Assembly: GCA_045586225.1 (NCBI GenBank)
Contig: JAZMZX010000127.1
Span: 1-52,275, forward strand
Source: Eubacteriales bacterium
GTDB taxonomy: Bacteria; Bacillota; Clostridia; Oscillospirales; CAG-272
DNA length: 52,275 nucleotides
Reading direction: 5' to 3'
The notes below the pieces were generated by a model. The model made no database searches and was not told where the DNA came from. It saw only the letters and a list, made by a program, of their open reading frames with translations. The position numbers and the translations under genes were made by a program. Below are positions 4,125 through 50,104 of the stretch, one piece after another. Each line of letters opens with the position of its first letter. Position 1 is the stretch's first letter.

Positions 4125-4183
4125 AAGTGATGTACAATTAATATAAATAAGACTCGTCAGCTATGCTGAAAAGGAGAGCTACT

Positions 4184-6622
4184 ATGAATTGGCTTAAAAG
4201 ACCTCTTTGTTTACTTTTCGCCCTTATCCTTTCGCTCAATATCCTGACAGTTGGAGTTTTAGCCGATGATACCTTCATCGATAACGAAAACTGGCGCGAG
4301 ATATCGGCGACGGAAGCTACCACAATGTACAATAACGACAAGTCCTTCGTTGTTATGTATTACCGCAACGGTTGCTTTAACAGCAGCCTGCGCAAGGTGA
4401 TGATCGACGAATGGATGACCACCTACGATACCGTTATTTACGGTGTCGACGTGGACGCGTATTCCATACCTTACTGGGTATGGGATGCCCTCGGAGAGGC
4501 TACAAGCGTAACTCTTCCCGTTATCTGCATCGTTGAAAACGGCGTTGCCTCCGCTTATTCCGGCGCGGACAGCATGCGCACCATTCAGAAGCGCTTCTCC
4601 GAATATCTCGGAGTATACGATGATGCAGTCATCTCCTTCGACGTTATAAACGAAACCGTATACGACGCATACGCCGTCAGCGGCAACGATGTTGAAAAAT
4701 ATCGTCCCGATCCTGCATATCTGGAGGATGAGCTTTACAATGCCGCACAAAGCATCGTCAGCGGCTGCACCACAGATGCGCAAAAGCTCAAGGCTATCTA
4801 CAATTGGGTCACCGAGAATATATACTATAACTACGGAATGCTCGACGGAAGCTACACGAGAAAGGTTTCCGCATACGAGACGTACAGCAGCAGAAACTCC
4901 GTTTGCGAGGGCTATGCAAATCTGACGGCGGCATTCTGCCACGCAGTGGGCATCCCCTGCCGCGTTGTGGTAGGCTTTGCCACCGGCGTTGGTGCCAGCG
5001 AAACGGTACCCGCTGTATGGGCGCGCTATAAGCAGTACTGCTCCGATAAGAATCTTACCTCCTTCACCAATGACATAATACCCTATGCAAATCACGCGTG
5101 GAACGAGGCGTTCATCAACGGCAGATGGGTCATCCTCGACACCACCTGGGGCTCCAACAACGATTACTACCCCGATTCCTACGGCAGGATCACAGGCGTT
5201 CGTAACGACGATTATTACGATCCCGACCTTGAATGGTTCTCCGAGACCCACCTTTTCTGGGGTACCTTCCGCCCCGCTCCCAGCGGCTCATCCTCTTCTG
5301 AAGAAGAGGTGCCCTCCGGCTCCGTATCTTACTATTACAGCGAAGCCGGAACTACCCTGAGATTCTCTTTTGGCGCTGCTGACCGCGTTTCCTACACCTG
5401 GTATTATAAGGATTTCGGCGCATCCAAATTCGTGAAGGCTTCCACAGAATCCACTTATTCGTTTGAATTGACCGAGGCAACCTCCGGACGTCAGTTTTAC
5501 TGCATCGCTACCACAAGTGAGGGCGAAAGCGTGAGCAGCGTTGTTATCGAAGCCCGCGTGGAGCTTGAGATCACGAAGGAGCCCACAGGCTCTTACGTGT
5601 CGCAGGGAGCAGTTGCCAAGACGACGGTCTCCGCCACCGGCGCAGGCCTCAAATACACCTGGTACATCAAGGATCCCGGTGCTTCAAAGTTCAGCAAATC
5701 CTCCATCACCTCCGCGACATATTCCTTCAAGATGACGGCGGCAAAATCGGGCCGTCAGGTATACTGCGTCATCACCGATAGGCATGGCGAGACCGTTACC
5801 ACTGACGTCGCTACACTTCGCATGAAGGCGACCGTTACCGTCCAGCCCAAGACCGCGTACGCGGCTGAGGGAAGCGTTGCTAAGACAACGGTCACCGCTG
5901 TGGGTGACGGCCTCACCTACACCTGGTACATCAAGGACCCCGGTGCTTCGAAATTCAGCAAGTCCTCCGTTACCTCCGCAACCTATTCCTTCAGAATGTC
6001 GGCGGCAAAATCCGGACGTCAGGCTTACTGCGTTATCAAGGATAAGTACGGCAACTCCGTCACCACGGAAACCGTTTACATGAGATCGAAGGCTGCGATC
6101 ACTACCCAGCCGAAGACAACGTACGCTCAGCTTGGCAAGGTGGCGAAGACGACAGTCACCGCTACCGGTGACGGACTCACCTACACCTGGTACATCAAGA
6201 ATCCCGGTGCGACCAAGTTTACAAAGTCCTCCATTAAATCCTCCACCTATTCTCTCAAGATGACAGAGGATAATGCGGGACGTCAGGTATACTGCATCGT
6301 CAAGGATAAGTACGGCAACACCGTAAAGACGGCAACTGTTGAGCTTCGCCTGAGAGTTACCGTTACAGCACAGCCCACAGCTACTCCTACAGCGATAGGC
6401 AAGGTTGCTAAAACCACCGTTACCGCAGTGGGCGACGGACTTACCTACACCTGGTATATCAAGGACCCCGGCGCTTCCAAGTTCAGCAAATCCTCCATCA
6501 CCTCCGCGACATATTCCTTCAAGATGACGGCGGCAAAATCCGGTCGTCAGGTATACTGCGTTATCAAGGATAAATACGGCTATACCGTGACCACCGCAAC
6601 GGTCACTCTTGCAAAGAAGTAA
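4184..6622 (+). CDS. Secreted transglutaminase-like cysteine protease domain protein with thioredoxin-fold-like N-domain and six Ig-like repeats
   Basis: ORF 4163..6622 trimmed to ATG 4184 (AAGGAGAG RBS). Signal peptide LCLLFALILSLNILTVGVLA. Transglutaminase-core Cys/His/Asp context (NSVCEGYANL, NHAWNEAFINGRWVILDTTWG). C-terminal repeats carry the motif Y(T/K)W(Y)xK...G.Q.YC. Confidence 0.8.
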   Translation: MNWLKRPLCLLFALILSLNILTVGVLADDTFIDNENWREISATEATTMYNNDKSFVVMYYRNGCFNSSLRKVMIDEWMTTYDTVIYGVDVDAYSIPYWVWDALGEATSVTLPVICIVENGVASAYSGADSMRTIQKRFSEYLGVYDDAVISFDVINETVYDAYAVSGNDVEKYRPDPAYLEDELYNAAQSIVSGCTTDAQKLKAIYNWVTENIYYNYGMLDGSYTRKVSAYETYSSRNSVCEGYANLTAAFCHAVGIPCRVVVGFATGVGASETVPAVWARYKQYCSDKNLTSFTNDIIPYANHAWNEAFINGRWVILDTTWGSNNDYYPDSYGRITGVRNDDYYDPDLEWFSETHLFWGTFRPAPSGSSSSEEEVPSGSVSYYYSEAGTTLRFSFGAADRVSYTWYYKDFGASKFVKASTESTYSFELTEATSGRQFYCIATTSEGESVSSVVIEARVELEITKEPTGSYVSQGAVAKTTVSATGAGLKYTWYIKDPGASKFSKSSITSATYSFKMTAAKSGRQVYCVITDRHGETVTTDVATLRMKATVTVQPKTAYAAEGSVAKTTVTAVGDGLTYTWYIKDPGASKFSKSSVTSATYSFRMSAAKSGRQAYCVIKDKYGNSVTTETVYMRSKAAITTQPKTTYAQLGKVAKTTVTATGDGLTYTWYIKNPGATKFTKSSIKSSTYSLKMTEDNAGRQVYCIVKDKYGNTVKTATVELRLRVTVTAQPTATPTAIGKVAKTTVTAVGDGLTYTWYIKDPGASKFSKSSITSATYSFKMTAAKSGRQVYCVIKDKYGYTVTTATVTLAKK
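5330..6619 (+). repeat. Six tandem ~88-aa (~264-bp) coding repeats (Ig-like modules)
   Basis: The repeated block is ..KTTVTA.GDGLTYTWYIKDPGASKFSKSS.TSATYSF.M.AAKSGRQ.YCVIKDKYG..V.T. The first copy is divergent. Copies 2 and 6 share a 62-bp identical stretch (5687-5748 = 6479-6540). Confidence 0.85.
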
Positions 6623-6651
6623 GCGAGACTGAATAACCTCATAACAGACAT

Positions 6652-6689
6652 GGCGCGATGCTGCAAACGGCATCGCGCCGATTCTTTTT
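6652..6689 (+). terminator. Rho-independent terminator
   Basis: ggcgcgatgc (6652-6661) pairs with gcatcgcgcc (6670-6679), followed by gattcttttt. Confidence 0.7.
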
Positions 6690-6752: not shown

Positions 6753-6781
6753 TTGAAAAATAAACGCGAATGAAGTATAAT
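6753..6781 (+). promoter_or_regulatory. Sigma-70-type promoter of the glycan operon
   Basis: TTGAAA (6753-6758), 17-nt spacer, TATAAT (6776-6781). It lies about 95 nt upstream of ATG 6876. Confidence 0.55.
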
Positions 6782-6875: not shown

Positions 6876-8111
6876 ATGGAAATTAAGCCTTTAGAGAAAA
6901 AAGTGTGGCTTTCTTCGCCCACAATGCACGGCGAAGAGCTTATGTACGTGAAAGAAGCATACGAAACCAACTGGATGTCCACGGTTGGCAAGAATATTAA
7001 CGAGGTTGAGCGCATGGCGGCAGAGAAGATAGGCTGCAAATATGCAGTTGCTCTTTCCGCAGGCACCGCAGCCCTTCATATGGCTGTGAAGCTCGCGGGC
7101 GTGAAGCCCGGCGACCGCGTGTTCTCCTCGGATATGACCTTTGCGGCAACGGTGAACCCCGTTCTGTACGAGGGCGGCGTGCCCGTTTTCATCGACAGTG
7201 AAAGAGATACCTGGAATATGGACCCTGAGGCTCTGAAGCTGGCCTTTGAGCTTTATCCCGACGTTAAGGTCGTTGTCGTTGCAAACCTTTACGGCGTTCC
7301 CGCAAAGCTTGACGAGATCCGTGCCATCTGTGACGAGCACGGTGCTGTCCTCATTGAGGACGCGGCAGAATCCATGGGCGCCACCTATAAGGGCGTTGAA
7401 ACGGGCACCTTCGGTACCTATAACGCCATCTCCTTCAACGGAAACAAGATCATCACCGGTTCTTCCGGCGGTATGCTTCTCACCGACAGTCTTGAGGCTG
7501 CAAATAAGGTGCGCAAGTGGTCCACGCAGAGCCGTGAAAACGCTCCCTGGTATCAGCACGAGGAGGTTGGCTACAACTATCGCATGAGCAACGTTATCGC
7601 AGGCGTTGTAAGAGGTCAGTTCCCCCATCTTGATGAGCACATCGCTCAGAAAAAGGCTATATATATGCGATATAAGGAAGCCCTCAGCGACCTTCCCGTT
7701 TCCCTTAACCCCTACGATGAGAGCATCATGGAGCCGAACTTCTGGCTTTCCTGCCTCCTGATCGATGAGGAGGCTATGTGCCGTCAGGTCCGCGATGACA
7801 GCGAGGCTCTTTACGTTAAGGAGCCCGGAAAAACGTGCCCCACGGAGATCCTCGAGAAGATCGCCGCTGTGAACGCAGAGGGCCGCCCCATCTGGAAGCC
7901 TATGCACATGCAGCCTATCTACCGCATGAACGGATACGTTACCGTGGACGGAAACGGACGCGGCAGAACGAACGCATACATCAACGAGGGCAAGACGAGC
8001 GACGTCGGCGCGGATATTTTCCACCGCGGACTCTGCCTGCCCAGCGACAATAAAATGACTCCCGAGGAGCAGGACGTTATCATTGCGGCTATCAGAAGCT
8101 GCTTTGAGTGA
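6876..8111 (+). CDS. DegT/DnrJ/EryC1/StrS-family PLP-dependent sugar aminotransferase (EpsN/PglE-like)
   Basis: WLSSPTMHGEELMYVKEAYETNW, ALSAGTAALHMA and the PLP-Lys context AISFNGNKIITGSSGGMLL. Its length and architecture are typical of nucleotide-sugar 4-aminotransferases. Confidence 0.85.
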   Translation: MEIKPLEKKVWLSSPTMHGEELMYVKEAYETNWMSTVGKNINEVERMAAEKIGCKYAVALSAGTAALHMAVKLAGVKPGDRVFSSDMTFAATVNPVLYEGGVPVFIDSERDTWNMDPEALKLAFELYPDVKVVVVANLYGVPAKLDEIRAICDEHGAVLIEDAAESMGATYKGVETGTFGTYNAISFNGNKIITGSSGGMLLTDSLEAANKVRKWSTQSRENAPWYQHEEVGYNYRMSNVIAGVVRGQFPHLDEHIAQKKAIYMRYKEALSDLPVSLNPYDESIMEPNFWLSCLLIDEEAMCRQVRDDSEALYVKEPGKTCPTEILEKIAAVNAEGRPIWKPMHMQPIYRMNGYVTVDGNGRGRTNAYINEGKTSDVGADIFHRGLCLPSDNKMTPEEQDVIIAAIRSCFE

Positions 8112-8163
8112 TAAGCTCCGGCGGCGAGCGAACATTTCGTGAACGAATATTTCGGAGGATAAT

Positions 8164-8835
8164 ATGGAATCCAATAAGCGCAAAGGCTCCCGCGGCATCT
8201 ACGCCCGCTTTTTTAAGAGACTTTTTGATATAATACTTTCCGCAACGGTGCTTCTCACCTTCAGCTGGCTTTATCTCATTCTTATGATAATCGTCCGCAT
8301 CAAGATGGGCTCTCCCGTGTTCTACGGCTCCTTCCGCATCGGAAAGGACGAAAAGCCCTATAAGAATTATAAATTCAGAAGCATGACAAACGAGACCGAC
8401 GAAAACGGCGTGCTTCTTCCTTCCGCAAAGAGACTGACCAAATTCGGCAGACTCCTTCGCAGCACCAGCCTGGATGAGATACCCGCTATCTGGAACATTC
8501 TTAAGGGCGACCTGAGCTTCGTAGGCCCCCGTCCCATGCCCACAAAATACCTGCCTTATTTCCGCGAGGAAGAGCGCGCACGCCACGATATCCGTCCCGG
8601 TCTCACAGGCTGGGCGCAGGTAAACGGCAGAAACGCTATCTCCTGGGACGATAAGTTCAAGTATGACGTTGAATACGTTGAAAACGTGTCCCTTTTGTTT
8701 GATATCAAGGTCCTTTGCCTGACGGTAGTCAAGGTGCTCAAGCGCAGCGATATCATTCAGGACGACCAGCAGACGGCAAGCTTACATATCGTGAGAGCTG
8801 ATATGGTGAAAAACGAGGAAGAGGCGAAGGGCTGA
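8164..8835 (+). CDS. Small monotopic phosphoglycosyl (undecaprenyl-phosphate sugar) transferase, PglC/EpsL/WbaP-C-terminal type
   Basis: FKRLFDIILS...LILMIIVRIKMGSPVFY, YKFRSM and LDEIPAIWNILKGDLSFVGPRP are the hallmark bacterial sugar transferase motifs. Confidence 0.88.
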   Translation: MESNKRKGSRGIYARFFKRLFDIILSATVLLTFSWLYLILMIIVRIKMGSPVFYGSFRIGKDEKPYKNYKFRSMTNETDENGVLLPSAKRLTKFGRLLRSTSLDEIPAIWNILKGDLSFVGPRPMPTKYLPYFREEERARHDIRPGLTGWAQVNGRNAISWDDKFKYDVEYVENVSLLFDIKVLCLTVVKVLKRSDIIQDDQQTASLHIVRADMVKNEEEAKG

Positions 8836-8915
8836 TACCGGCCATAGGTGCCGCTGCGCACCGTTATCGCGGGGGAAGGATACCCCCGACAAAGACTGCC
8901 TTTTCAGAGGTTTAT

Positions 8916-9974
8916 ATGACACCCAGCGAAAAAGAGAAAAAAGAAATAGGAAGTGAATACTGGCTCACGGACAGCACCGAAGAGAGAGCCCCTGTTTGGG
9001 AGCGCTTTTCGGATGGGGAGCTTTTCGCCGAAAAGGAGTTTTACGTTTCCGGACGCTCCGCCCTTCACGGCATCATTTCCGATGTAAAAAAGGAGAGGGA
9101 ATGCAGGACCGCTTATCTGCCGTCCTACTGCTGCGATTCCATGGTGGCGCCCTTTCTTGACCACGGCATGACCGTGGAATTCTACAGCGTTATTCCCGAC
9201 AGCGGGATATGTTCGGTGATAGACGAACGTAAAAAATGCGACGTCGTGCTCACCGTTGACTATTTCGGATACGGCAGCGAAAGGTGCCCTCTGCCCGAGG
9301 CGGTCCACATACACGACGTGACCCATTCGCTTTTGTCCGGCTCTTGCCGCAACGACGCAGATTATATTTTCGGCAGTCTTCGAAAATGGGGAGCCGTTGC
9401 GGGAGCGGGCTTTGCCGCGAAGAGAAAGGGAAGCTTCCTCGTGCATCCCGAAAGAGGAGAGCACAGGGCGTTTCTTGAGCTTCGCCGCCGCGGCTACAGC
9501 CTGAAGGCTGATTACATCCTTAAGGGAGAGGGCGAGAAGTCTCCTTTCCTCGACGCTTTTTCAAGTGCGGAGGAGCTTTTGGATGAAGATTACGCAGGAT
9601 ACGCAGCCGACGCCGATTCGCTTCTGCAGGCGGAGGAGATCGGTGCCTGTGCCGAAAAAAGAAGAGAAAACGCAAAAAGACTGCTGGCGGCTCTTGGGAA
9701 TCTCCGATGTGTCACTCCCATATACGGGGAGGTGGGCGAGGAGTGCGTGCCTCTTTTCGTGCCCGTGCTTGTGAAGGACGGAAAAAGAGACGCGCTGCGG
9801 TCGTTCCTTATCAAAAACCGCGTGTACTGTCCCGTTCATTGGCCGCGCCACAGCGGGCTTGGCGGCGAGCTTTACGAAAATGAGCTGTCCCTTATCTGCG
9901 ACCAGCGCTACGGACCCGACGATATGGACAGGACTGCGGAGCTGATCACCGAATTTGAGGAAAGGTTTTGTTAA
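8916..9974 (+). CDS. Divergent DegT-like PLP-fold enzyme (second aminotransferase/dehydratase-like protein)
   Basis: GRSALHGIISD..., AYLPSYCCDSMVAPFLDHGMTVEFY and a candidate Schiff-base Lys in IFGSLRKWGAVAGAGF parallel the layout of the 6876 gene. Similarity is weak, so function is uncertain. Confidence 0.5.
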   Translation: MTPSEKEKKEIGSEYWLTDSTEERAPVWERFSDGELFAEKEFYVSGRSALHGIISDVKKERECRTAYLPSYCCDSMVAPFLDHGMTVEFYSVIPDSGICSVIDERKKCDVVLTVDYFGYGSERCPLPEAVHIHDVTHSLLSGSCRNDADYIFGSLRKWGAVAGAGFAAKRKGSFLVHPERGEHRAFLELRRRGYSLKADYILKGEGEKSPFLDAFSSAEELLDEDYAGYAADADSLLQAEEIGACAEKRRENAKRLLAALGNLRCVTPIYGEVGEECVPLFVPVLVKDGKRDALRSFLIKNRVYCPVHWPRHSGLGGELYENELSLICDQRYGPDDMDRTAELITEFEERFC

Positions 9975-9980
9975 ACTGAA

Positions 9981-10988
9981 ATGAAAGAAGATATAAGAGC
10001 GCTTCCCGACGTTTATTTTGCCCGCGCATACTGCGAGCTTTATGAATCCATCGAGAAGGGCACTGTGAATAAATTTGAATATGCCGATGAAAACGGCGCG
10101 GCGTCGAACATTTTTATGAAGCGCCCCGTGCCTTACACCGTCGACGGAGAGCAGTATTACGATATCGTCACCCCCTACGGCTACGGCGGCCCCGTCGTTA
10201 CCGAGGCAAAGGACAAGGAAGCCCTGCTTGAGGGCTACTGGCGCGCATGGACAGAATACTGCGAAAAGGAAAGGATCGTTTGCGAGTTCGTTCGCTTCCA
10301 CCCCCTCCTTCGCAACGACGTTGATTTCGGCAGCCGCTACAATGCCGTTAAAAACCGCCACACCCTGGCTATCGAGCTGACGGAGGACTTTTTCGCAACG
10401 CAGTTTTCCTCCAAGTGCCGCAACACTATACGCAAGGCGGAAAAGCTCGGCGTTACTTACGAGATAGACGAGGCCTGCGATTCCATCGAGACCTTCGCGG
10501 AAATATATTACAAAACGATGGCGAAGGATAATGCCGACGATTATTATTTCTTCGCTCTCGACTATTTTCTCAAAATGAGAGAGGAGCTTGCGGGAAGCCT
10601 CGTGCTTATAAACGCAAAGCTTGAAGGGAAGACAATTGCTTCCTCCCTCTTTATGCTGTCGGAGGAGTTCATGCACTATCACCTTTCGGCAACAGACCCC
10701 GAATACTACACCTACGCCGCAAACAACCTTGTTTTGAAGGTGGCGGCTGAGTGGGGATGCACCCACGGCAAAAAGTGGCTTCACCTTGGCGGCGGACTTT
10801 CCTCAAGTGAGGAGGATTCGCTCTTCAAGTTCAAGCGCTCCTTCGCAAGAGAAGACAGAAATCTCAAGGAATTCTGGCTCGGCAAAGCCCTCTACAATAA
10901 GGAAGTATACGATAAGCTCGTAGACATCCGCCGCGCAGAAGGCAACTTCGACGAGGAATCCGGCTTTTTCCCTAAATACCGCATATAA
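9981..10988 (+). CDS. FemAB-like / GNAT-fold (Acetyltransf_6-type) aminoacyl- or acyl-transferase
   Basis: YYDIVTPYGYGGP, EFVRFHPLL, MHYHLSATDPEY and FKFKRSF resemble the FemX/FemAB/MurM-related proteins found in polysaccharide loci. Confidence 0.6.
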   Translation: MKEDIRALPDVYFARAYCELYESIEKGTVNKFEYADENGAASNIFMKRPVPYTVDGEQYYDIVTPYGYGGPVVTEAKDKEALLEGYWRAWTEYCEKERIVCEFVRFHPLLRNDVDFGSRYNAVKNRHTLAIELTEDFFATQFSSKCRNTIRKAEKLGVTYEIDEACDSIETFAEIYYKTMAKDNADDYYFFALDYFLKMREELAGSLVLINAKLEGKTIASSLFMLSEEFMHYHLSATDPEYYTYAANNLVLKVAAEWGCTHGKKWLHLGGGLSSSEEDSLFKFKRSFAREDRNLKEFWLGKALYNKEVYDKLVDIRRAEGNFDEESGFFPKYRI

Positions 10989-11020
10989 AAGTAACACACG
11001 TTAAAGGAGATAAGTTTTCT

Positions 11021-12295
11021 ATGTCAAAAGAGAAAAACTTGCCCGTAATATTGACTGACGACTCTCCGATCAAGATGCTTTTAGATAAGATTTTTGCTGC
11101 CATTCTGGCGCTTTGCCCCATCCTCCAGCATTATGACTGCATCATCAAGGATGCGGGAACGGTTTTCATGGCCGTTGCCTTCTGCTATTTTGGTATTCAA
11201 CTCCTGAGGGCAAAAAGGTGGCACTTCGGTATCGTGCTTCCGCTCGTGGCGATGAGCCTTTACGAAATAGTGAATCATGGAACGGGAGTTATGGAGATCG
11301 CCCGTGAAGCACTTCTTATCGGATATTTTGTTGCCGCTGCAAGCGGAGTCGTCAATTTCAAGTATTATGTGAAGGCTGCAACTTGCGTTGCCTTTTCCGC
11401 AGGCGCGCTTCTGGTGGTGCAGTACGTGTGCTACTACGCACTCGGATTCCATCTGCAGCTTGTGAACACCGCGTGGCTTGACAGCGGTGCAGAGCAGTGG
11501 GTGCTGCTTGCCGAAACGGGTCGCATCAGCGTGACTGGAAAGCCTATGAGCTTTTACAGACCCTCGGCCTTTTTCCTTGAGCCGTCTCACCTGACGCTTT
11601 ACACCTTCCCGCTGCTTGGACTGTCGGTCCTTTCCCCGAAAATGGACTTGAAGCGCATTATCGTCGCTTCCGTTCTTAGCCTCAGCATTATACTTTCAAC
11701 GTCCGGAATGGGAATTGCTATCGTGTTTGGCTTCTGGGGTCTTTACCTTGTGAGACATCTTATGGGAGACGGTGATCTCCGCCGGCGTATCAAAACCCTG
11801 TTCCGCCCGAAAAACCTTGTCTGGATATTTGGGCTGATCCTCATCTTCGGCGGGCTTTATGCATTCTTTGAGCCCTTCCGAATGAGCGTGAACCGTATCT
11901 TTTCCTCTGCAAACGGCAAAAATGCCATCGAGGGACGTATGGGCACGGGAATTTCCGCCATCAAATCGCTTTCAGGTGTGGAATTCTGGCTCGGCAAATC
12001 CGATTGGGGCAACGTACATAAGTGGAACATGGCAGGCTTCTTCTATACGTTCTACACTCAGGGCTTCATCGGTGTGCTCCTTTCCTTCGGATTCTACGTT
12101 TACACGCTTATCAAAACGAAGGATGCTTATTTCTGGCTGGCATTTATCGTTATAGGTCTTTCCCTGATCACTATCCACACGCATGCAGCATTTTATATGA
12201 TGTACTACGTGATGATCATGCTCGGCGGCCACGATCTGACGAAGGATAAGCTTTACATTCCGAATTTCTTCATCCGGAAGAAGGCGGATCAGTGA
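11021..12295 (+). CDS. Polytopic membrane protein, putative Wzy-type repeat-unit polymerase / O-antigen-ligase-like
   Basis: About 10-12 predicted TM segments, no soluble domain, and a position between modifying enzymes and the flippase. The assignment rests on context and topology only. Confidence 0.5.
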   Translation: MSKEKNLPVILTDDSPIKMLLDKIFAAILALCPILQHYDCIIKDAGTVFMAVAFCYFGIQLLRAKRWHFGIVLPLVAMSLYEIVNHGTGVMEIAREALLIGYFVAAASGVVNFKYYVKAATCVAFSAGALLVVQYVCYYALGFHLQLVNTAWLDSGAEQWVLLAETGRISVTGKPMSFYRPSAFFLEPSHLTLYTFPLLGLSVLSPKMDLKRIIVASVLSLSIILSTSGMGIAIVFGFWGLYLVRHLMGDGDLRRRIKTLFRPKNLVWIFGLILIFGGLYAFFEPFRMSVNRIFSSANGKNAIEGRMGTGISAIKSLSGVEFWLGKSDWGNVHKWNMAGFFYTFYTQGFIGVLLSFGFYVYTLIKTKDAYFWLAFIVIGLSLITIHTHAAFYMMYYVMIMLGGHDLTKDKLYIPNFFIRKKADQ

Positions 12296-12321
12296 CCGAC
12301 TTGCTTTCTTGAGGTATTATA

Positions 12322-13770
12322 ATGGATTCAAATCAGAAAAGAGGCAGCACGGGTCTTGCGCTGAAGGCGGGATTCTGGTACGTGGTCAGCAATTTCCTCG
12401 TGCGTGCCATGGGCTTTTTGACGACTCCCATATTCTCGCGCCTTATGAGCAAGGCGGATTACGGCGAGTTTTCAAACTATGCGAGCTGGCAGGCTATGCT
12501 TATCATCATAACCGGTGCCGAGCTTCACTCAACGCTCGCAAGAGCATATTACGATTTCAAGGAAGATTACGATAAATATATATCCACGGTAACAGCGGCA
12601 AGCTGCGGCATCACGTCGGTGGTATACATCTTCTTCCTGCTTTCGCGAGGCTGGATATACAGTATCGTTTCTATCCCCGAAAGATTCGTGCACGTTCTGT
12701 TTTTCACGCTTATGTTCCAGGCCTGCAAGTCAATTTATCTTGCAAGGGAAAGAACGTACTACAGATATAAGTCCGTTGCCGTTATTTCGGTGTTCAATCT
12801 TCTCATTCCCACGCTCATATCGGTTTTCCTCGTTATGTTCGTGGAGGAGACACAGAGGCTGGGAGCCCGTATATACGGCTTCTACCTTCCCTCAGCCGTT
12901 ATAGGACTTGGCTGCGCCCTGCTCATGCTGATGAGGGGCAGGTCATTTGAGCTGAAATACTGCAAATACGCATTCAGGCTTTCGATTCCCCTTCTGGTGC
13001 ACTATTTCACAGCGCACCTTCTCACCTCCACCAACACTATCGTGACAAAGAACGTGCTTGGCGCGGAAGCGGTTTCCGTTGTGAGCCTTGCCTCCAGCGC
13101 AAATCACATCCTCACGATACTTCTCACGTCTCTGTCCGGTGCTGTCACTACCTGGCTTATGGACAATATGGAGCAGGGAAACGTGAAGGCCACAAGACGC
13201 GGCACGCTTTTCTACGTTGGCGGCATATCTCTCGTTGCTGTGGGCGTTATCCTTCTTTCACCTGAGGTCGTGTGGATACTGGGCGGCAAGGCCTATGCAT
13301 CCTCAACGGCGCTTATGCCCGGAATGGTCGTGTCGGCGCTTATCCAGTCTGTGACGACCATATACACCATTATGCTGACATATCAGAAGAGAGTGGTAAA
13401 GACCGCGCTCTACACCACGGTGGTTGCTGTTATCTGTATTCTGGCAAAGGTCTTCCTGCTTCCCGTGTACGGTGTTATGGTGCTCCCCTTTATCAATATG
13501 GCATGCTTCGCCATCCTTTATTTCGTGAACTATATCCTTGTCCGCAGAAGCGGATGCGGAAAGTACGTGAACTTCAAGGGCATCACGGCGATACTGCTTA
13601 TCATCTGCTTCGTTATGGCGGGCAGCTATTATCTCTATGAGCATACCGTTATCAGGTATGCCGTTATCGCGGCTATGGCGGTGGTGGCGCTTACCATTAT
13701 GTATAAATACCGTGCCGTCATCATCAAGCTCGTTAAATCAAAATTCAAAAAGAAAAAAACTAACGTTTAA
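12322..13770 (+). CDS. Wzx-type oligosaccharide flippase (MOP/polysaccharide biosynthesis protein family)
   Basis: Typical N-terminus (AGFWYVVSNFLVRAMGFLTTPIFSRLMSKADYGEF), about 12-14 TMs and 482 aa. Confidence 0.8.
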   Translation: MDSNQKRGSTGLALKAGFWYVVSNFLVRAMGFLTTPIFSRLMSKADYGEFSNYASWQAMLIIITGAELHSTLARAYYDFKEDYDKYISTVTAASCGITSVVYIFFLLSRGWIYSIVSIPERFVHVLFFTLMFQACKSIYLARERTYYRYKSVAVISVFNLLIPTLISVFLVMFVEETQRLGARIYGFYLPSAVIGLGCALLMLMRGRSFELKYCKYAFRLSIPLLVHYFTAHLLTSTNTIVTKNVLGAEAVSVVSLASSANHILTILLTSLSGAVTTWLMDNMEQGNVKATRRGTLFYVGGISLVAVGVILLSPEVVWILGGKAYASSTALMPGMVVSALIQSVTTIYTIMLTYQKRVVKTALYTTVVAVICILAKVFLLPVYGVMVLPFINMACFAILYFVNYILVRRSGCGKYVNFKGITAILLIICFVMAGSYYLYEHTVIRYAVIAAMAVVALTIMYKYRAVIIKLVKSKFKKKKTNV

Positions 13771-13787
13771 TATACGGAGGAATTATT

Positions 13788-14021
13788 ATGTCTATCAAAG
13801 AACAGGTCAACAGCATTCTTAAAGCAATAAAGCCCACGAAGGATCTTTCCTCGGTCGAGGATATTATCGAGGGCGGCTATCTCGATTCCTTTGAGCTTAT
13901 GGCTCTTATCGCTCAGCTGGGCGAGGAATTTTCCGTTGAGATCGGCGTGGATGAGATCGTTCCCGAGAACTTCAATTCCGTTGACGCCATTGCAGCCATG
14001 ATCGAAAACCTCAAGGGCTGA
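13788..14021 (+). CDS. Acyl/aminoacyl carrier protein (DltC-like)
   Basis: 77 aa. IEGGYLDSFELMALIAQLGEEF contains the phosphopantetheine Ser in an LDSF context as in D-alanyl carrier proteins. GGAGG RBS. Confidence 0.75.
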   Translation: MSIKEQVNSILKAIKPTKDLSSVEDIIEGGYLDSFELMALIAQLGEEFSVEIGVDEIVPENFNSVDAIAAMIENLKG

Positions 14022-14045
14022 GCCGAATAAAGGAGAATCCGAAAA

Positions 14046-14609
14046 ATGAGAGCTGACAGACTTTATCACAGCGTCCGCCTTTTGCTCCTGAGAAGACCTG
14101 CAAAAAGAGCGGCATATCTGAAAAAGCACGACATCCTCGGCGCTATCGGTGATAACTGCAAATGGGGCCCCTGGCTCCTTCCCCTTTACCCCAAGCTTAT
14201 CAAGCTGGGCAATAACGTTCACGTTCACAAAACGGCGAAGCTGGTCACTCACGATATGCTCAACAGCTTTCTGAAGACCCGTAACCCTAACGATGACTTT
14301 GGCTACAGAGAAAAGCTTGGCTGCATTGAGCTTATGGATAACGTTTACATCTCCATGAACGTTACCGTTATGAACGATGTGCGCATCAATAAGGACTGCA
14401 TTATCTCTGCGGGAAGCGTCGTTACCTCTGACATCCCCGAGAATTCCGTTGCTTCCGGTATCCCCGCGAAGCCTACCGGCAGATTCGATATGTTTCTTGC
14501 CCTCAGAAGAATGAGCAAGGGCCAGCGCGTTACCTTCAAAAATCAGGAACTGCCCGACGAGCTTGCTGAGGAGGAATGGTCCCGCTTTGCAAAGCGCCGT
14601 GATAAATAA
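14046..14609 (+). CDS. Left-handed beta-helix (hexapeptide-repeat) acyl/acetyltransferase
   Basis: Imperfect hexapeptide turns (IKLGNNVHVHKTAKL, IELMDNVYISMNVTVMNDVRINKDCIISAGSVVTSDIPENSVASGIPAK). Confidence 0.75.
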   Translation: MRADRLYHSVRLLLLRRPAKRAAYLKKHDILGAIGDNCKWGPWLLPLYPKLIKLGNNVHVHKTAKLVTHDMLNSFLKTRNPNDDFGYREKLGCIELMDNVYISMNVTVMNDVRINKDCIISAGSVVTSDIPENSVASGIPAKPTGRFDMFLALRRMSKGQRVTFKNQELPDELAEEEWSRFAKRRDK

Positions 14610-14636
14610 GCTCTTTTCGGAGGAATTAAGATCATT

Positions 14637-16088
14637 ATGCGTTCTATAGTAAAAAGCATCTACGATCACAGTATCAATTATCCCGATAAAAAGGCCATAA
14701 TCGCCCTCGACACCACGGTGGACTATAAGACACTTTGGCCGATGGTGAAGGGAATGGCAAAGCTTTTGCTCGACCGCGGCCTGAAAAAGGGCGACAGAGT
14801 TATCCTCGAGGCAAATCACACCGTTGAATTCCTCGTTATGTGCTATGGCATCCATCTTGCGGGCGGCGTTCACGTTCCCGTTGAATTCAATGCTCCCAAG
14901 GAACGCGTTTCCGATATAAGCCGCGAGATCGAGCCTTCCATGGTGTTCACCGGCGAGCATCCCCTGGAGGCTTTCGGCATCACCCTTGAAGGACTTTTGA
15001 GCGTTGAATGCGGCGAGCCTGAATTTCCTACGGAGGATATGCTTCAGGAGATCCTTTTCACAACGGGTACCACCGGTAAGTCCAAGGGCGTTATGATAAC
15101 GCACTACGGACAGATGAACATGTGCGAATCCCAGAACGCGGTGCTCAACTACAGCGTCGACAACGTGTGGCTAATTCCCACGCCCATGAACCACGCAGCA
15201 GGTCTCCGCAAGACCCATATGTCTATGGTCCGCGGCAGCACTGTCCTGCTTATGAACGGCTTTACGAATCTCAAGCTTTTCTTTGCGAACATCAGAGATC
15301 ACGGTGTGACGTCCATATACCTGCCTCCGGCAGGCGTGCACTACATTCTTATGCTCGCCTCCAAGGAGCTTGCAAAGTACGACGGTCAGCTGGATTTCCT
15401 TTATTCAAGCTCCTCGGCGCTTCCCGGCGGAGACAAGGAAAAGCTGATATCTCTGCTCCCCTCCGTGCGTAAATTCGATGCATACGGCGGCTCCGAGGTA
15501 GGAGCTGTATGCTATATTGACTATAATTCTGTGACCGGAAACACCAAGTGTGTAGGCAAGGCAAACCCCGGTGTGGATATCTTCATTGTGGACGAACATT
15601 ACAACAAGATCGACGCAACCCCCGAGAATCCCGGCATTATCGCGATAAAGAGCAACACCGTTACCGCGGGCTACTGGAACGAGCCTGAAATGACGGCGAA
15701 CACCATCCGCGACGGCATCATCTATATGACGGACCTGGGCTATATCGAGGACGGATATCTCTATCTCGTAGGCCGCCGCGACGACGTTATAAACGTGGGC
15801 GGTCTGAAGATCGCTCCCACAGAGGTGGAGGATATCGCCCTCCGTCATCCTATGGTGAACGAATGCGTCTGCATCCCTTACGAGGATAAAATATACGGCA
15901 GAGTGGTGAAAATGCTCGTGACCCTGAACGATGGCTACGAGCTTGATCCCGAGGCTCTCGCAGATTATCTCGGTGAGAATCTGGAGGCTTATAAGATCCC
16001 CAAGTATATCGAAAGAGTGGATTCTATCCCGCGCACCTTTAACGGAAAGATAGACCGCAAAAAGATAATTGCAGAGCAGCAGAAATAA
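14637..16088 (+). CDS. Adenylate-forming enzyme (AMP-dependent ligase, DltA/acyl-carrier-protein ligase-like)
   Basis: AMP-binding core motifs FTTGTTGKSKGVMITH, YGGSEVG, GYLYLVGRRDDVINVGGLKIAPTEVE and the C-terminal GKIDRKK. Confidence 0.85.
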   Translation: MRSIVKSIYDHSINYPDKKAIIALDTTVDYKTLWPMVKGMAKLLLDRGLKKGDRVILEANHTVEFLVMCYGIHLAGGVHVPVEFNAPKERVSDISREIEPSMVFTGEHPLEAFGITLEGLLSVECGEPEFPTEDMLQEILFTTGTTGKSKGVMITHYGQMNMCESQNAVLNYSVDNVWLIPTPMNHAAGLRKTHMSMVRGSTVLLMNGFTNLKLFFANIRDHGVTSIYLPPAGVHYILMLASKELAKYDGQLDFLYSSSSALPGGDKEKLISLLPSVRKFDAYGGSEVGAVCYIDYNSVTGNTKCVGKANPGVDIFIVDEHYNKIDATPENPGIIAIKSNTVTAGYWNEPEMTANTIRDGIIYMTDLGYIEDGYLYLVGRRDDVINVGGLKIAPTEVEDIALRHPMVNECVCIPYEDKIYGRVVKMLVTLNDGYELDPEALADYLGENLEAYKIPKYIERVDSIPRTFNGKIDRKKIIAEQQK

Positions 16089-16091: not shown

Positions 16092-16125
16092 AAAAAAAGC
16101 ACCCCTTTACGGGGTGCTTTTTTTG
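16092..16125. terminator. Bidirectional rho-independent terminator
   Basis: agcacccc (16098-16105) pairs with ggggtgct (16111-16118), with an A-run before and a T-run after. It lies between convergent genes. Confidence 0.85.
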
Positions 16126-16126: not shown

Positions 16127-17032
16127 TTATTCTTCGATTCTCTGCAAAAGCTTTGCCGCATATTCGGCATATTCGGAAACGAATTGACCGCGGCGGCGCA
16201 CGATGGCGGGGCGGCGGAGATAATGGTCGTTTTCAAGCCTGAAAACGGTGATGTTTTCGTCGAAGGTCTCGTTGCTCACAAACTGCAGCGGCAGAAGCGT
16301 GGCGCCGATGCCGGTGTTTGCCATAGCCCACGCGGTGGCAACTCCCACCACCTCCATAACGACGTTGGGCGTGAAGTCTGCGGCGGTGCAGAGCTTGTCG
16401 AGAAGCTGACGCATCTCCTGATTATGTCCCACCGCGATGAAGGGAAGATCTTTGCAGTCTCTTATATCGATAGAGGAACCGTCTTTGCGGCTGCTTTCGG
16501 GGATAAGGTCAAGAAGCTGATTCGGCACTGCAAGCACGATGGTGTCGGGCTCGAGAGGGGTAACCTCCAGAAGGGATTCGTCAACGGGCAGATTCACGAT
16601 GGCAAAATCGTATTTGCCCTCAGCCGCCTCGCGGCGAAGATTGTCGCTTCCCGTTTCGTGGAGGCATATCTGAATGCCGGGATACCTTTGCCTCAGCTTT
16701 TTCACAACGTCGGTGACGAGATAAAGGCTTCGGAAGGGGGATATGCCGATAACGAGACGGCCCGCCTCGCCGGAGCGATATTTATCCATTGAGCGCATAA
16801 GCTGGTCTTCCTTATATAAAAGCTCCTGAGCCTCGCGAACAAAGTGCTCGCCTGCGGGAGTCATTCTCAGCGGATTTGAGTTTCTGTCGAAGAGCTTAAC
16901 GCCGAGCTCGTGCTCAAGATTCAATATTTGCTTGCTCAGCGCAGGCTGAGTGATGTTGAGCTTTTCCGCAACCTGCGAAAAATTGCGCACCTGCGAGAGC
17001 AGGATCACGTACTGAAACTGTCGGGAATTCAA
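16127..17032 (-). CDS. LysR-family transcriptional regulator
   Basis: N-terminal wHTH (FQYVILLSQVRNFSQVAEKLNITQPALSKQILNLEHELGVKLFDR) and a C-terminal substrate-binding fold. TTG start with a GGAG RBS. Confidence 0.9.
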   Translation of the reverse strand: MNSRQFQYVILLSQVRNFSQVAEKLNITQPALSKQILNLEHELGVKLFDRNSNPLRMTPAGEHFVREAQELLYKEDQLMRSMDKYRSGEAGRLVIGISPFRSLYLVTDVVKKLRQRYPGIQICLHETGSDNLRREAAEGKYDFAIVNLPVDESLLEVTPLEPDTIVLAVPNQLLDLIPESSRKDGSSIDIRDCKDLPFIAVGHNQEMRQLLDKLCTAADFTPNVVMEVVGVATAWAMANTGIGATLLPLQFVSNETFDENITVFRLENDHYLRRPAIVRRRGQFVSEYAEYAAKLLQRIEE

Positions 17033-17124: not shown

Positions 17125-17152
17125 TTGACAAATAAAATTTATCTGCTATAAT
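17125..17152 (+). promoter_or_regulatory. Sigma-70-type promoter of the DctM-like permease gene
   Basis: TTGACA (17125-17130), 16-nt spacer, TATAAT (17147-17152). It is divergent from the LysR gene. Confidence 0.55.
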
Positions 17153-17210
17153 ATAACCTGTTGGTGATGAAATCTATAACCAAACGGAAATGATACAGAA
17201 GGAGATAAAT

Positions 17211-18569
17211 ATGCCTACTTCACTTATATATCTCGGCATTATGCTTGCGGTGATCGTTATATGGTTCGTGCTTATGAAGCGCCCGGTCTATGAGGCGGTT
17301 TTCATCAGCTTTGTGCTTCTCCTGGCAATAACGAACACCTGGGAAAATGCCTGGGGCTACATAATGGACGGACTTTCCACGTCGCTTCTTTATTCTATGG
17401 TGGCATTTGTTGCAATGTCTATCCTGCTCACGAAAACGAAGATAATCGACAGCTGCATTGCCGTTATTCTTTCTCTTATCGGCCGCATTACAGGCGGCGC
17501 GGGCTACACTGCCGTTATTGCAAGCGCATTCATGGGTGCACTTTCCGGCTCCGGTCCCGGTAACGTTATGGCCACCGGTGCCATCACTATCCCCGCAATG
17601 AAGCGCTCCGGATTCCCCGCTCATCTTGCTGCAAACATCGAAAGCAACGCAAGCTACATGGGCAATATGATCCCTCCTTCCTCAAATATAGTTGCCGCTC
17701 TCGGCGCATTCACCGCTCTTTATCCGACGGTTAATATGACCACCGGTCAGTTCTGGATCATCCTTTGGGGCATTGCTCTCTGGTTCGTTCTTCAGAGAGT
17801 GACAATGGTGTGGGCGTTCTGCAAATATTATAAGGTAAAGCCCATGTCCAAGGAAGAGCTTCCCGATCTGAAGGAGACCCTTAAGGCAGGCTGGCAGGGA
17901 CTTCTTCTCCCCGTTATCATTCTTTTGCCCTTCCTTCTCGATTATCTCTTCAAGGATAATTTCTTCACCGACCGTCTCGGTGCCACCGGCGCGAAGTATC
18001 TTTCCTCCTCGCTTCTCCTCTTTATCGGAGGCCTTGCATCTATCTACACCTGCCTTATCGCAAAGGATAAAACCAAGGTGACCGTGCCCAAGCTGGCGGA
18101 AATGTTTGCGAAGGGCGTGAAGACCATCGCTCCCTCCATCGGCGTGTGTATCTTCGGATATATGATCGGCTCCCTTTTTGCAGACCTGAACGTTGCTGAG
18201 GAAATGGGCGCTATCATCACCGCCTGGAACTTTGGCAAGCTTGGCACAGTCATTGCCATTTGCCTTATCACCTGCTTTATGGGCATGGTCGTTCCCGGCT
18301 CGTCTCTCGTTGTAATATTCGGACCGGTGTTTATCTCCACCCTTGCGACAGTGGGATGCGATCCGATTCTCGTTGCGGCTATGCTCCCCTGCATCTGCGG
18401 CGTTATGTGCGGCATCACGCCCCCTCTGGGACTTGGTATGTACGCCGGTATGACCCTCGCTGAATCCGATTTCAGCAGCACCTTCAGGAATAATCTCTGG
18501 TGGGTATCAGCACAGTTCATTCTTGAGGTTGTCGTTCTTATGGGATGGCTCCCCATCCTCGGACTCTAA
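17211..18569 (+). CDS. DctM-like TRAP-type large permease family protein
   Basis: ORF trimmed to ATG 17211 (AGGAG RBS). IASAFMGALSGSGPGNVMATGAITIPAMKRSGFP...MGNMIPPSSNIV matches the conserved DctM core. Polytopic. Confidence 0.65.
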   Translation: MPTSLIYLGIMLAVIVIWFVLMKRPVYEAVFISFVLLLAITNTWENAWGYIMDGLSTSLLYSMVAFVAMSILLTKTKIIDSCIAVILSLIGRITGGAGYTAVIASAFMGALSGSGPGNVMATGAITIPAMKRSGFPAHLAANIESNASYMGNMIPPSSNIVAALGAFTALYPTVNMTTGQFWIILWGIALWFVLQRVTMVWAFCKYYKVKPMSKEELPDLKETLKAGWQGLLLPVIILLPFLLDYLFKDNFFTDRLGATGAKYLSSSLLLFIGGLASIYTCLIAKDKTKVTVPKLAEMFAKGVKTIAPSIGVCIFGYMIGSLFADLNVAEEMGAIITAWNFGKLGTVIAICLITCFMGMVVPGSSLVVIFGPVFISTLATVGCDPILVAAMLPCICGVMCGITPPLGLGMYAGMTLAESDFSSTFRNNLWWVSAQFILEVVVLMGWLPILGL

Positions 18570-18581: not shown

Positions 18582-18875
18582 ATGAAAGCAATTTGCAATA
18601 AGATCGGTTCCTTTCTGAAGACCGTTTTTGGATACGGCATAATGATCTGCCTTTTTGCCGGCGGAATCACCTTCTTCGGTTACGTGGCAGCACTCATCAT
18701 CGGCGGCGATACTGCGGCTATGATTTGTGAGTTTATCTACAAAACGTTTATTCCTTACGTTGTGAAGACCTCCACCGTTATGGTTATCCTCGGCCTTGTG
18801 GCGATGTACCTTTGCGGAGAGATGGCTCTCACCGCAGACAAGAAGAAAACCTCCAAGCACGCGGGTGAAATGTAA
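18582..18875 (+). CDS. Small three-TM membrane protein, function unknown
   Basis: 97 aa. It starts 12 nt after the permease gene (GGAGG RBS) and is hydrophobic with a Lys-rich tail. Confidence 0.5.
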   Translation: MKAICNKIGSFLKTVFGYGIMICLFAGGITFFGYVAALIIGGDTAAMICEFIYKTFIPYVVKTSTVMVILGLVAMYLCGEMALTADKKKTSKHAGEM

Positions 18876-26396: not shown

Positions 26397-27020
26397 ATGA
26401 ACGACAAAGATAAGCTTCATTCCGGCGAGATATACTACCCCTCCGGAGATGAAATAATGAAGGAGCAGCTTGCCTGCCTTGAGCTTTTATACGATTATAA
26501 TGCCACCCGCCCCTTCGAGCAGGAGAAGCGGCAGGAGCTGATGAAAGGTATGTTTGCGGAGGTGGGGGAAAACTGCTATATCGAGCCGCCTCTTCGCAGC
26601 AACTGGGGCGGACATCACGTTCACCTCGGCGATAACGTTTATGCCAATTTTAATCTGACTCTTGTGGACGATACCCACATACGCATCGGCTCATATACGA
26701 TGATAGCCCCCAACGTTACGATAGCCACGGCGGGGCACCCTATCCTACCCGGGCTGAGGCGGAAGGGATATCAGTATAATATGCCCGTCACCATTGGTGA
26801 AAACTGCTGGATAGGCGCAGGCGCCGTTATACTGCCGGGTGTCACCGTGGGGGATAATACCGTCATCGGTGCGGGAAGCGTCGTCACCCGCGATATACCT
26901 GCCAACGTGGTTGCCGTCGGCAATCCCTGCCGCGTGGTGCGCGAGATAAGCGAGCACGACAGAGAATACTATTTCAGGGACAAAAAAGTGCCCCTTGAGC
27001 TTTTGGCTGAAGAAAAATAA
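26397..27020 (+). CDS. Maltose/galactoside O-acetyltransferase family (hexapeptide) protein
   Basis: Mac-type N-terminus (SGEIYYPSGDEIMKEQLACLELLYDYN) and hexapeptide repeats (IGENCWIGAGAVILPGVTVGDNTVIGAGSVV). Confidence 0.85.
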   Translation: MNDKDKLHSGEIYYPSGDEIMKEQLACLELLYDYNATRPFEQEKRQELMKGMFAEVGENCYIEPPLRSNWGGHHVHLGDNVYANFNLTLVDDTHIRIGSYTMIAPNVTIATAGHPILPGLRRKGYQYNMPVTIGENCWIGAGAVILPGVTVGDNTVIGAGSVVTRDIPANVVAVGNPCRVVREISEHDREYYFRDKKVPLELLAEEK

Positions 27021-30494: not shown

Positions 30495-30720
30495 AAAATC
30501 ATCCTTCGATAAACTGCAAATGTAGAAAACTGTCGTTTTATGGACAGTTACTATTATAGCACCTATCTTTTTGCTATGGCAATACGTTTTTCACGGAATA
30601 ATAGCATTATTTTTTATGATTTTCACATTGTTCAAAAATAACGGTTGATTAAACAGCATAATTATTATATAATACTATGGATAATTACAGTAAAACAGAT
30701 TTGATATATTGAGGTTTGAT

Positions 30721-44105: not shown

Positions 44106-44393
44106 ATGGAGCTTGTTGAAATAGCAAAGATAGTTCTTCTTCTAATGCTGGTGGTCACAGCCGTGTGCGCGGCATTTATCAAGCGCACTCTTCATGCCGT
44201 GATCGTGTTCACCGGCTATAGCCTTATAATGGCCATACTCTGGGTGCTCATGGAGTCCCCCGACCTGGCTGTAACGGAAGCTGCCGTAGGCGCGGGCGTT
44301 TCCGGCGTCCTTTTCTATATGGCGCTTCACAAGATCGGTCGAATGGAGGCTGAAAACAAAAGTGAAAAACAGAATAACGAAACTGAAAAATAA
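44106..44393 (+). CDS. DUF4040 / MbhD-like small membrane subunit (equivalent to the MrpA C-terminal segment)
   Basis: ORF 44016..44393 trimmed to ATG 44106 (AAGGAGG RBS). Conserved SPDLAVTEAAVGAGVSGVLF motif. Confidence 0.75.
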   Translation: MELVEIAKIVLLLMLVVTAVCAAFIKRTLHAVIVFTGYSLIMAILWVLMESPDLAVTEAAVGAGVSGVLFYMALHKIGRMEAENKSEKQNNETEK

Positions 44394-47155: not shown

Positions 47156-47178
47156 TCAATCGGAAAGGAATTTGAATC

Positions 47179-48615: not shown

Positions 48616-48618
48616 GCT

Positions 48619-50091: not shown

Positions 50092-50104
50092 AGGAGGGAA
50101 CACT

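Follow-up and report, generated by a model that had tools for sequence, protein, structure and literature searches.

The 52,275-nt contig JAZMZX010000127.1 of assembly GCA_045586225.1 (Eubacteriales bacterium; GTDB order Oscillospirales, CAG-272) was analyzed over its full length, which is referred to here as the window. It carries a ten-gene glycan operon (6876-16088) whose closing genes encode a stand-alone carrier protein, a left-handed beta-helix (LbH, hexapeptide) acyltransferase, and an adenylate-forming ligase. The reading put forward here, with a probability of roughly 0.6, is that this trio activates a small polar acid, holds it on the carrier, and attaches it to a surface sugar. A hydroxy- or dicarboxylic acid is the probable substrate, rather than an alpha-amino acid or a fatty acid.

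In the proposed mechanism, the 483-aa ligase would adenylate a small polar carboxylic acid to the acyl-AMP and thioesterify it onto the phosphopantetheine arm predicted at Ser33 of the carrier, and the LbH enzyme would use His69-Asp70 to pass the carrier-bound acyl group on to the sugar unit of the operon. Transfer would take place on the cytoplasmic side, before the Wzx flippase turns the lipid-linked unit over. The sugar unit would be of the 4-amino-4,6-dideoxy-N-acetylhexosamine (HexNAc) type, made by a PglE-like aminotransferase and primed by a PglC-like transferase. In this genome, the acid or its precursor would probably be imported by the adjacent LysR-controlled DctM permease, and many relatives appear to rely on a seven-gene organic-acid module instead of, or besides, the permease.

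Carrier, acyltransferase, and ligase

The three genes lie on the + strand with gaps of 24 and 27 nt, and the upstream Wzx gene ends 17 nt before the carrier gene. The original prediction, made from the letters of the window, had placed them correctly, and the motifs that it listed (IEGGYLDSFELMALIAQLGEEF, FTTGTTGKSKGVMITH, GYLYLVGRRDD, and GKIDRKK) were all found. Conservation was assessed using a scan of one genome per species, which gave 19 loci with an LbH relative (numbered with the prefix L), and exact-protein look-ups, which added Pfam-annotated contexts. The trio clade comprises 22 distinct loci including the window, with LbH identities of 56-84%. A carrier gene was found within 1.4 kb of the LbH gene in 22 of 22 loci, a ligase gene adjoins in 21 of 22 (the exception is L014), and the order carrier-LbH-ligase is mostly kept. 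The earlier view of the trio as one unit thus held across Clostridia and Bacteroidales, and the co-conservation supports treating carrier, LbH enzyme, and ligase as one functional unit. Two of the loci come from Bacteroidales metagenome-assembled genomes (MAGs) and encode close relatives of the LbH enzyme (73% identity) and the ligase (68-70%), so the cassette has moved between phyla. For the LbH enzyme and for the ligase alike, gut and rumen metagenomes hold 120 or more cluster representatives at about 70% identity or above, and their public annotation is generic ("acyltransferase" and "acyl--CoA ligase"). In L014 (9231-13615) and L016 (16279-19003), the carrier gene lies near genes for a 250-281-aa protein and a secreted protein of about 610-650 aa; the former resembles an acyl-acyl carrier protein (ACP) thioesterase by eye and had no match in family searches, among which Pfam was not included.

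The strongest argument for transfer from the carrier comes from the loaders. Every member of the LbH family that was examined adjoins a carrier gene, and the loader is an acid ligase, an amino-acid adenylase, or FkbH; because the carrier is constant while the loader varies, the LbH enzyme is taken to receive its acyl group from the carrier, and it looks like a carrier-dependent platform with interchangeable loaders. The adenylase case is L017 (7622-13528; a Lachnoclostridium MAG), where a carrier and an LbH enzyme of 56% identity stand beside a true amino-acid adenylase with the motif FDFDVSVKD, which scored 322.7 bits with TIGR01733 (cut-off 317.4) and 286 bits with the DltA model. This is the only relative in which a genuine DltA-like partner was found; the arrangement of DltA-like enzyme, carrier, and LbH enzyme that the original prediction had imagined for the window therefore occurs in L017 and not in the window itself. 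The L017 locus also encodes a GNAT protein and a PylC-like ATP-grasp protein, and of two more LbH proteins encoded there, one is a relative of the PglD/NeuD-type enzymes of L018 and L019. The locus could be a case of DltB-independent aminoacylation of a glycan precursor. The FkbH case is a sister LbH clade of about 38% identity with an ACP gene within about 0.7 kb (L025:3942-12398, L026:4516-13219, and L027). Its gene order is CapD dehydratase, aminotransferase, phosphoglycosyl transferase, LbH, PglD/NeuD, 68-aa ACP, FkbH, glyoxalase-like, LicD, and IspD, with 270 bits for FkbH (cut-off 147) and 196 bits for PglD/NeuD. FkbH loads glyceryl units in polyketide pathways, and the sister clade would be a glyceryl-ACP loader within a polysaccharide or teichoic-type locus; a literature search returned nothing on FkbH in polysaccharide loci.

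The carrier (77 aa, 13788-14021, +) is a member of the acyl/peptidyl carrier family by its PP-binding match (PF00550, 1.7e-5, 25.4 bits, cut-off 20.8), with a predicted phosphopantetheine attachment at Ser33 in GGYLDSFEL. In alignments with type II carriers of solved structure (the Bmp1 carrier 6cxt, PigG, PltL, and DltC), Ser33 coincides with the Ser that bears phosphopantetheine, as anticipated when the gene was first noted. Ser33 is invariant across 21 homologues, to which a PENFNS motif is also common. The best NCBIfam match is DltC at 34.9 bits (cut-off 68), and the best solved match is a type II carrier of the Bmp1/PigG type.

The ligase (14637-16088, +) matched AMP-binding PF00501 (6e-54) and AMP-binding_C PF13193 (4.8e-15), and has the features of the ANL superfamily, namely N- and C-domains, the A3 motif TTGTTGKSKG, and the A10 Lys in GKIDRKK. 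Its specificity positions were mapped by alignment to E. coli EntF (Ser) and EntE (aryl acid), from L020, and read 235 Ala, 236 Ala, 239 Arg, 240 Lys, 278 Tyr, 299 Tyr, 301 Ser, 322 Ala, 330 Val, 331 Cys, and 517 Lys. Position 235 thus holds Ala where amino-acid adenylases and DltA have the alpha-amino-binding Asp235. The A4 region is TPMNHAAGLRK, of which PMNHAAGLRK is kept in 117 of 120 homologues, and its His is typical of acyl- and aryl-CoA ligases. The same count, 117 of 120, applies to conservation of the pocket set Ala235, Ala236, Arg239, Lys240, Tyr278, Tyr299, and Ser301. The best NCBIfam match is a fatty-acid-CoA ligase subfamily at 251 bits (cut-off 476); the amino-acid adenylation model TIGR01733 gave 162 bits (cut-off 317), and the DltA model PRK04813 gave 152 bits (cut-off 476). 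With Ala at 235 and both of the latter scores below their cut-offs, the DltA/DltC-like loading step of the original prediction was not upheld. The basic, polar pocket, as read from the alignment, argues for a small polar or anionic acid as the substrate. Assignment to the exosortase A/PEP-CTERM acyl-CoA ligase set was considered and rejected, with 203 bits for TIGR03098 (cut-off 592) and 35.8 bits for the FemAB-like TIGR03019 (cut-off 260).

The LbH enzyme (187 aa, 14046-14609, +) matched Hexapep PF00132 at 2.5e-9, and its His69-Asp70 pair is invariant over the two clades. An AlphaFold2 (AF2) model was built from an alignment spanning the trio clade and the sister clade, with a mean confidence (pLDDT) of 95; an earlier AF2 model from 26 near-identical homologues (pLDDT 49.5) was discarded. 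In the model, a pair of helices at the N-terminus precedes the LbH core, which has a loop following His69-Asp70, and two C-terminal helices bear the conserved Trp178 and Phe181. The (S/T)HD context of the His and a C-terminal GxPA(K/R) segment are those of the galactoside/maltose acetyltransferase (GAT/MAT) and WcaF-like class. Foldseek placed maltose/galactoside O-acetyltransferases at the top (3nz2, 2p2o, 4isx, and 1kqa; TM scores of 0.54-0.6), followed by the N-acetyltransferase Pcryo_0619 and the N-acyltransferase AntD, and identity to solved neighbors in this fold search was 14-26%. Membership of the PglD/NeuD/VioB family was rejected on a TIGR03570 score of 46.5 bits (cut-off 160.8) that covered only residues 92-142. 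The other LbH gene of the window (26397-27020, 207 aa) has no carrier gene nearby. Its product resembles ordinary maltose/galactoside O-acetyltransferases, shares 27% identity with the LbH enzyme of the trio, and was judged unrelated to it.

Supply of the acid

Two sets of neighbor genes recur downstream of the trio, a permease set and the seven-gene module, and the permease set follows the operon in the window. A LysR-type regulator (16127-17032, -; PF00126 and PF03466) is encoded divergently from the permease gene and is co-located with the trio in 8 other loci. A promoter-like site for the permease gene, TTGACA-16-TATAAT with 12/12 matches and an extended TG, lies at 17125-17152 (+). The DctM-family permease (459 aa, 17190-18569, +; PF06808, 8.3e-54) is the candidate importer of the acid or its precursor; it accompanies the trio in 10 other distinct loci with varying order and orientation, and in L029, it is in the operon of the trio, directly after the ligase and an ATP-grasp gene. 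It is followed by a 97-aa membrane protein (18582-18875, +) that matched no family but has a conserved position, as homologues of 89-102 aa trail DctM in L001, L009, L013, L015, L023, L029, and a locus of GCA_016648615.

The seven-gene module encodes an MmgE/PrpD protein, an aldo-keto reductase, a thiamine pyrophosphate (TPP) decarboxylase, a 296-aa unknown protein, a TIM-barrel C-C lyase (PF15617), and the beta and alpha subunits of an Fe-S hydro-lyase. It was found in L021 (13176-20088), L011 (2655-9699), and L012 (2930-9737), and in part in L006/L023, L014, L016, and L013. In the Bacteroidales loci L011 and L012, it lies within the polysaccharide locus, directly upstream of the carrier gene and on the same strand. 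The permease set or the module is within 10 kb of the trio in 16 of 22 loci; of the other six, L005 ends at a contig edge after the ligase gene. L023 and the GCA_016648615 locus hold both. These genes would be the suppliers of the acid, and since the window has only the permease set and no seven-gene module, import is the likelier source here.

The module looks like an undescribed organic-acid pathway. Its MmgE/PrpD protein is nearest to iminodisuccinate (IDS) epimerase and IRG1/cis-aconitate decarboxylase and not to 2-methylcitrate dehydratase, and neither the PF15617 lyase nor the 296-aa protein had a match in PDB searches. With the phosphonopyruvate decarboxylase model TIGR03297, the TPP enzyme scored 383 bits, above the cut-off of 312.5; a phosphonate product was nevertheless not called, as no phosphoenolpyruvate mutase was seen. 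An ATP-grasp ligase gene directly follows the ligase gene in L003, L008, L009, L015, and L029, and lies beside genes for a 352-aa protein and a Fem-like protein, both described below, in L005, L006, L011, L021, and L028, with no copy in the window. The enzyme might attach an amino acid, or it might amidate a second carboxylate. The permease set and the module point to a small polar acid rather than D-alanine or a fatty acid.

A joint reading can be offered tentatively, with less than even odds. The LbH family would be a dedicated ACP-dependent platform for glycan acylation whose loader has been swapped repeatedly (organic-acid ligase, DltA-like adenylase, and FkbH/glyceryl), and the organism of the window would add an unusual C4-C6 polar acid that it does not make but scavenges from the gut through the LysR-controlled DctM permease, the same acid being made by relatives through the seven-gene pathway. 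If so, surface chemistry would depend on cross-fed metabolites.

Alternative readings and known systems

Several observations weigh against the proposed acylation of the 4-amino sugar with a carrier-bound polar acid. No 4,6-dehydratase (PglF/CapD type), ATP-grasp, PrpD, or PglD homologue was found in the 52-kb window, and both the keto-sugar 4,6-dehydratase and the acid-synthesis module would have to be supplied from elsewhere, the former because the aminotransferase needs a 4-keto sugar; a PglF/CapD dehydratase gene lies just upstream of the aminotransferase gene in L006/L023, L017, and L025. A binding protein, normally needed by DctM-type permeases, was not seen here. The top family matches of the ligase are fatty-acid-CoA ligase subfamilies, all under cut-off, and the nearest solved relatives of the LbH enzyme use acetyl-CoA and act on hydroxyl groups. 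Finally, a bona fide PglD/NeuD N-acetyltransferase coexists with relatives of the LbH enzyme in L017 and in the sister clade (L025-L027). The case for an amine acceptor is weakened by this, since a PglD-type enzyme is available there for the 4-amino group; in these loci, the LbH enzyme may not be the amine acylator, or may not be the user of the carrier.

The best-surviving alternative accepts the same loading and has the LbH enzyme O-acylate a sugar hydroxyl of the nucleotide- or lipid-linked unit, with the 4-amino group left free or modified by the FemAB-like enzyme of the window, which could use the amine. This is a serious rival and a possible outcome, if a less than even one. In its favor are the closest matches by sequence and by fold (galactoside/maltose O-acetyltransferases, WbbJ, and WcaF), the (T/S)HD motif, and the coexisting PglD/NeuD enzymes. 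Against it, the N-acyltransferases Pcryo_0619, AntD, and QdtC are also among the structural and sequence neighbors. The fold search returned N- and O-acylating enzymes with similar TM scores and did not separate the two readings. The minimal loci L001, L002, L008, and L009 have the aminotransferase, and because neither they nor the window hold another acyltransferase for the amine, N-4 is slightly favored as the acceptor at this locus and in the minimal loci. The original prediction of cytoplasmic transfer to an amino sugar accordingly stood in part: transfer of a carrier thioester to a glycan precursor in the cytoplasm is the natural reading because the Wzx-type locus that holds the trio also encodes a PglE/LegC-like aminotransferase and a PglC-like phosphoglycosyl transferase, but the amine is no more than a candidate acceptor, the LbH enzyme being closest to GAT/MAT O-acetyltransferases.

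It is improbable that the ligase is an ordinary acyl-CoA ligase and that the LbH enzyme uses acyl-CoA or acetyl-CoA directly, with the carrier serving another step or being dispensable. The annotation of the homologues and the fact that all solved neighbors of the LbH enzyme bind CoA would agree with such a route, but a carrier gene accompanies the LbH family in every locus seen, with three loader types, and the carrier has family-specific motifs in addition to its invariant Ser.

Lipidation, in which a fatty acid is loaded on the carrier and attached to the sugar by an LpxA/LpxD-like LbH enzyme to give a lipoglycan anchor, is very unlikely. LpxA and LpxD are LbH enzymes that take acyl-ACP donors and UDP-sugar acceptors, the top NCBIfam matches of the ligase are long-chain-fatty-acid-CoA ligase subfamilies (251 and 227 bits), and the gene of a DegV fatty-acid-binding protein lies 3 kb downstream. 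Those ligase matches are all well under their cut-offs, however, the pocket is lined by Arg, Lys, Tyr, Tyr, and Ser, the conserved neighbors are DctM and enzymes of C4-C6 acids with no fatty-acid genes, and DegV is not conserved beside the trio elsewhere.

Least credible of all is a Dlt-like aminoacylation, in which D-alanine or glycine is loaded on a DltC-like carrier and the LbH enzyme replaces DltB/DltD: it draws on the DltC match of the carrier and on the DltA-like enzyme that L017 pairs with such a carrier and LbH enzyme, and it is opposed by Ala instead of Asp at 235, by Arg and Lys in the pocket, by ligase scores far under the DltA and adenylation cut-offs where the L017 enzyme passes the adenylation model, and by neighbors that are organic-acid genes. 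The Dlt system is similar in that an adenylating enzyme and a small carrier with an LDS-type Ser decorate a polymer of the cell envelope. It differs in that the ligase here lacks the amino-binding Asp and fails the DltA model, that transfer is by a soluble, presumably cytoplasmic LbH enzyme, and that membrane-bound O-acyltransferase (MBOAT) and DltD proteins are missing. Their absence from the window, as originally noted, was confirmed by scanning all open reading frames (ORFs) with at least four hydrophobic segments; the multi-pass ORFs are the Wzy-like protein, Wzx, DctM, an FtsX-type ABC protein, and Mrp antiporter subunits. Neither MBOAT nor DltD was present in the Pfam-annotated related loci.

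Among known systems, the wbeK-O (rfbK-O) genes of Vibrio cholerae O1 are the closest in logic. The shared architecture is an ACP, a ligase, and an LbH-type acetyltransferase encoded in an O-antigen locus, with a small hydroxy acid predicted to go onto the 4-amino group of a 4-amino-4,6-dideoxy sugar. In V. cholerae, the predicted acid is tetronate and the sugar perosamine, and the O1 antigen requires wbeL, which encodes the 471-aa AMP-ligase WbeL (PMC3441752). The V. cholerae set has a reductase/dehydrogenase that tailors the acid on the carrier, unlike the operon at 6876-16088, where no reductase or dehydrogenase was found, and uses GDP-perosamine and ABC-dependent export; here, the context is of the UDP-HexNAc/PglC type with Wzx, and the acid would come from a permease or a separate seven-gene module. 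In Flavobacterium psychrophilum, wfpC-G are predicted to carry out ACP-dependent N-acylation of UDP-Qui2NAc4N by a PglD homologue (PMC6519341). The likeness lies in the acyl-ACP as predicted donor and in the bacillosamine-type 4-amino sugar made by PglE/PglF homologues (PMC6519341). F. psychrophilum builds its chain on an O-antigen-specific ACP with ketosynthases and a ketoreductase, whereas here the ligase would load a ready-made acid, and its transferase is a PglD homologue, whereas here it is a GAT/MAT-like LbH protein without the PglD N-terminal domain.

The AlmEFG system of V. cholerae dispenses with DltB/DltD, and its loading pair, of the DltA/DltC type, supplies a cytoplasmic acyltransferase; AlmG belongs to the lipid A acyltransferase family and is not an LbH protein, and the substrate is glycine and the acceptor lipid A. 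The likeness to LpxA/LpxD and to MAT/GAT is the LbH fold with a catalytic His; the donor of MAT/GAT is acetyl-CoA, and the LbH family of the trio is set apart by an N-terminal two-helix region and a C-terminal helix of its own. In the anthrose pathway of Bacillus, AntD (3vbi and others) is an LbH N-acyltransferase that puts a small hydroxy-acyl group onto a nucleotide-linked 4-amino-4,6-dideoxy sugar. It uses an acyl-CoA donor, has no dedicated carrier or ligase, and is a weaker structural match (TM about 0.4). None of the V. cholerae O1, F. psychrophilum, AlmEFG, and LpxA/LpxD systems is a family match for the trio proteins.

The novelty first claimed for the trio was overstated, as carrier-dependent sets had already been predicted in V. 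cholerae O1 and F. psychrophilum; these two predictions were the only ones returned by a literature search for a characterized example of the cassette. The logic of carrier-dependent acylation is known, and this enzyme family with its acid is an uncharacterized variant that is widespread and horizontally mobile, being common in gut and rumen Clostridia and having crossed into Bacteroidales. Given the parallel to the V. cholerae O1 tetronate genes, current concepts would not be overturned. Non-acetyl acyl groups on surface sugars shape antigenicity, recognition by phages and antibodies, and charge, and most lack known enzymes. If true, the proposed reading would define a family of carrier-dependent LbH transferases with swappable loaders and give a handle on an undescribed organic-acid pathway; the type of loader would predict the type of acyl group and so provide a rule for reading glycan decorations from metagenomes.

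Other genes of the operon and the window

A terminator at 6651-6680 precedes the promoter-like site of the glycan operon, TTGAAA-17-TATAAT with 11/12 matches, at 6753-6781 (+). A strong bidirectional intrinsic terminator with a 14-bp stem between A and T runs (16092-16124) ends both the operon and the convergent LysR gene. The first gene encodes a DegT/PglE/LegC-like sugar aminotransferase (411 aa, 6876-8111, +; PF01041, 7.7e-79) that scored 313 bits with the LegC family TIGR04181, under the cut-off of 420. It is followed by a small PglC-like polyprenyl-phosphate phosphoglycosyl transferase (223 aa, 8164-8835, +; PF02397 Bac_transf, 2.9e-59), and this priming enzyme is the sole glycosyltransferase of the operon. 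Both genes are co-conserved with the trio, and the aminotransferase is present in most loci.

The 352-aa protein encoded next (8916-9974, +) had been called a second pyridoxal phosphate (PLP) enzyme, which was not confirmed: it has no Pfam or NCBIfam match, and its single hit, to the sugar aminotransferase QdtB, is co-linear and weak (E 0.26). It is conserved as the partner of the FemAB/GNAT-like transferase (335 aa, 9981-10988, +; PF13480, 3.3e-13, and PF02388, 1.4e-11), with homologues adjoining a Fem-like gene in L005-L007, L011, L021, L023, L028, and L029. The description of the locus as a Wzx/Wzy operon was right for the Wzx-type flippase (482 aa, 12322-13770, +; PF01943, 1.4e-12, nine hydrophobic segments), but what stands at the Wzy position is a polytopic membrane protein (424 aa, 11021-12295, +) with at least five hydrophobic segments and no family match, Pfam included. 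Its homologues (34-52% identity) occupy the equivalent position in 12 loci.

Long antisense ORFs of 407-445 aa on the - strand (13767-15104, 6891-8198, and 9561-10784) are probable composition artifacts. They have no family matches and overlap the + strand genes, misleading greedy longest-ORF gene calling, and were rejected because it is the + strand genes that match known families and are conserved in homologues.

Directly upstream of the operon, an 819-aa secreted protein (4163-6622) combines a transglutaminase-like core with some five tandem repeats of about 90 aa (motif TYTWYIKDPGASKFSKSS). A LytR-CpsA-Psr (LCP) ligase and a sortase-domain protein are encoded downstream (30709-31842 and 40087-41205, respectively), and linkage of the glycan to the wall could be the task of the LCP enzyme. 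An 872-aa protein (32278-34896, -) begins with an extracytoplasmic function (ECF) sigma-70 region 2/4, to which a long C-terminal part that includes a DUF3108-like segment is fused. The genes at 44362-52081 encode subunits of the Mrp/NADH-quinone-oxidoreductase type, with an MnhB-like protein followed by four Proton_antipo_M proteins.

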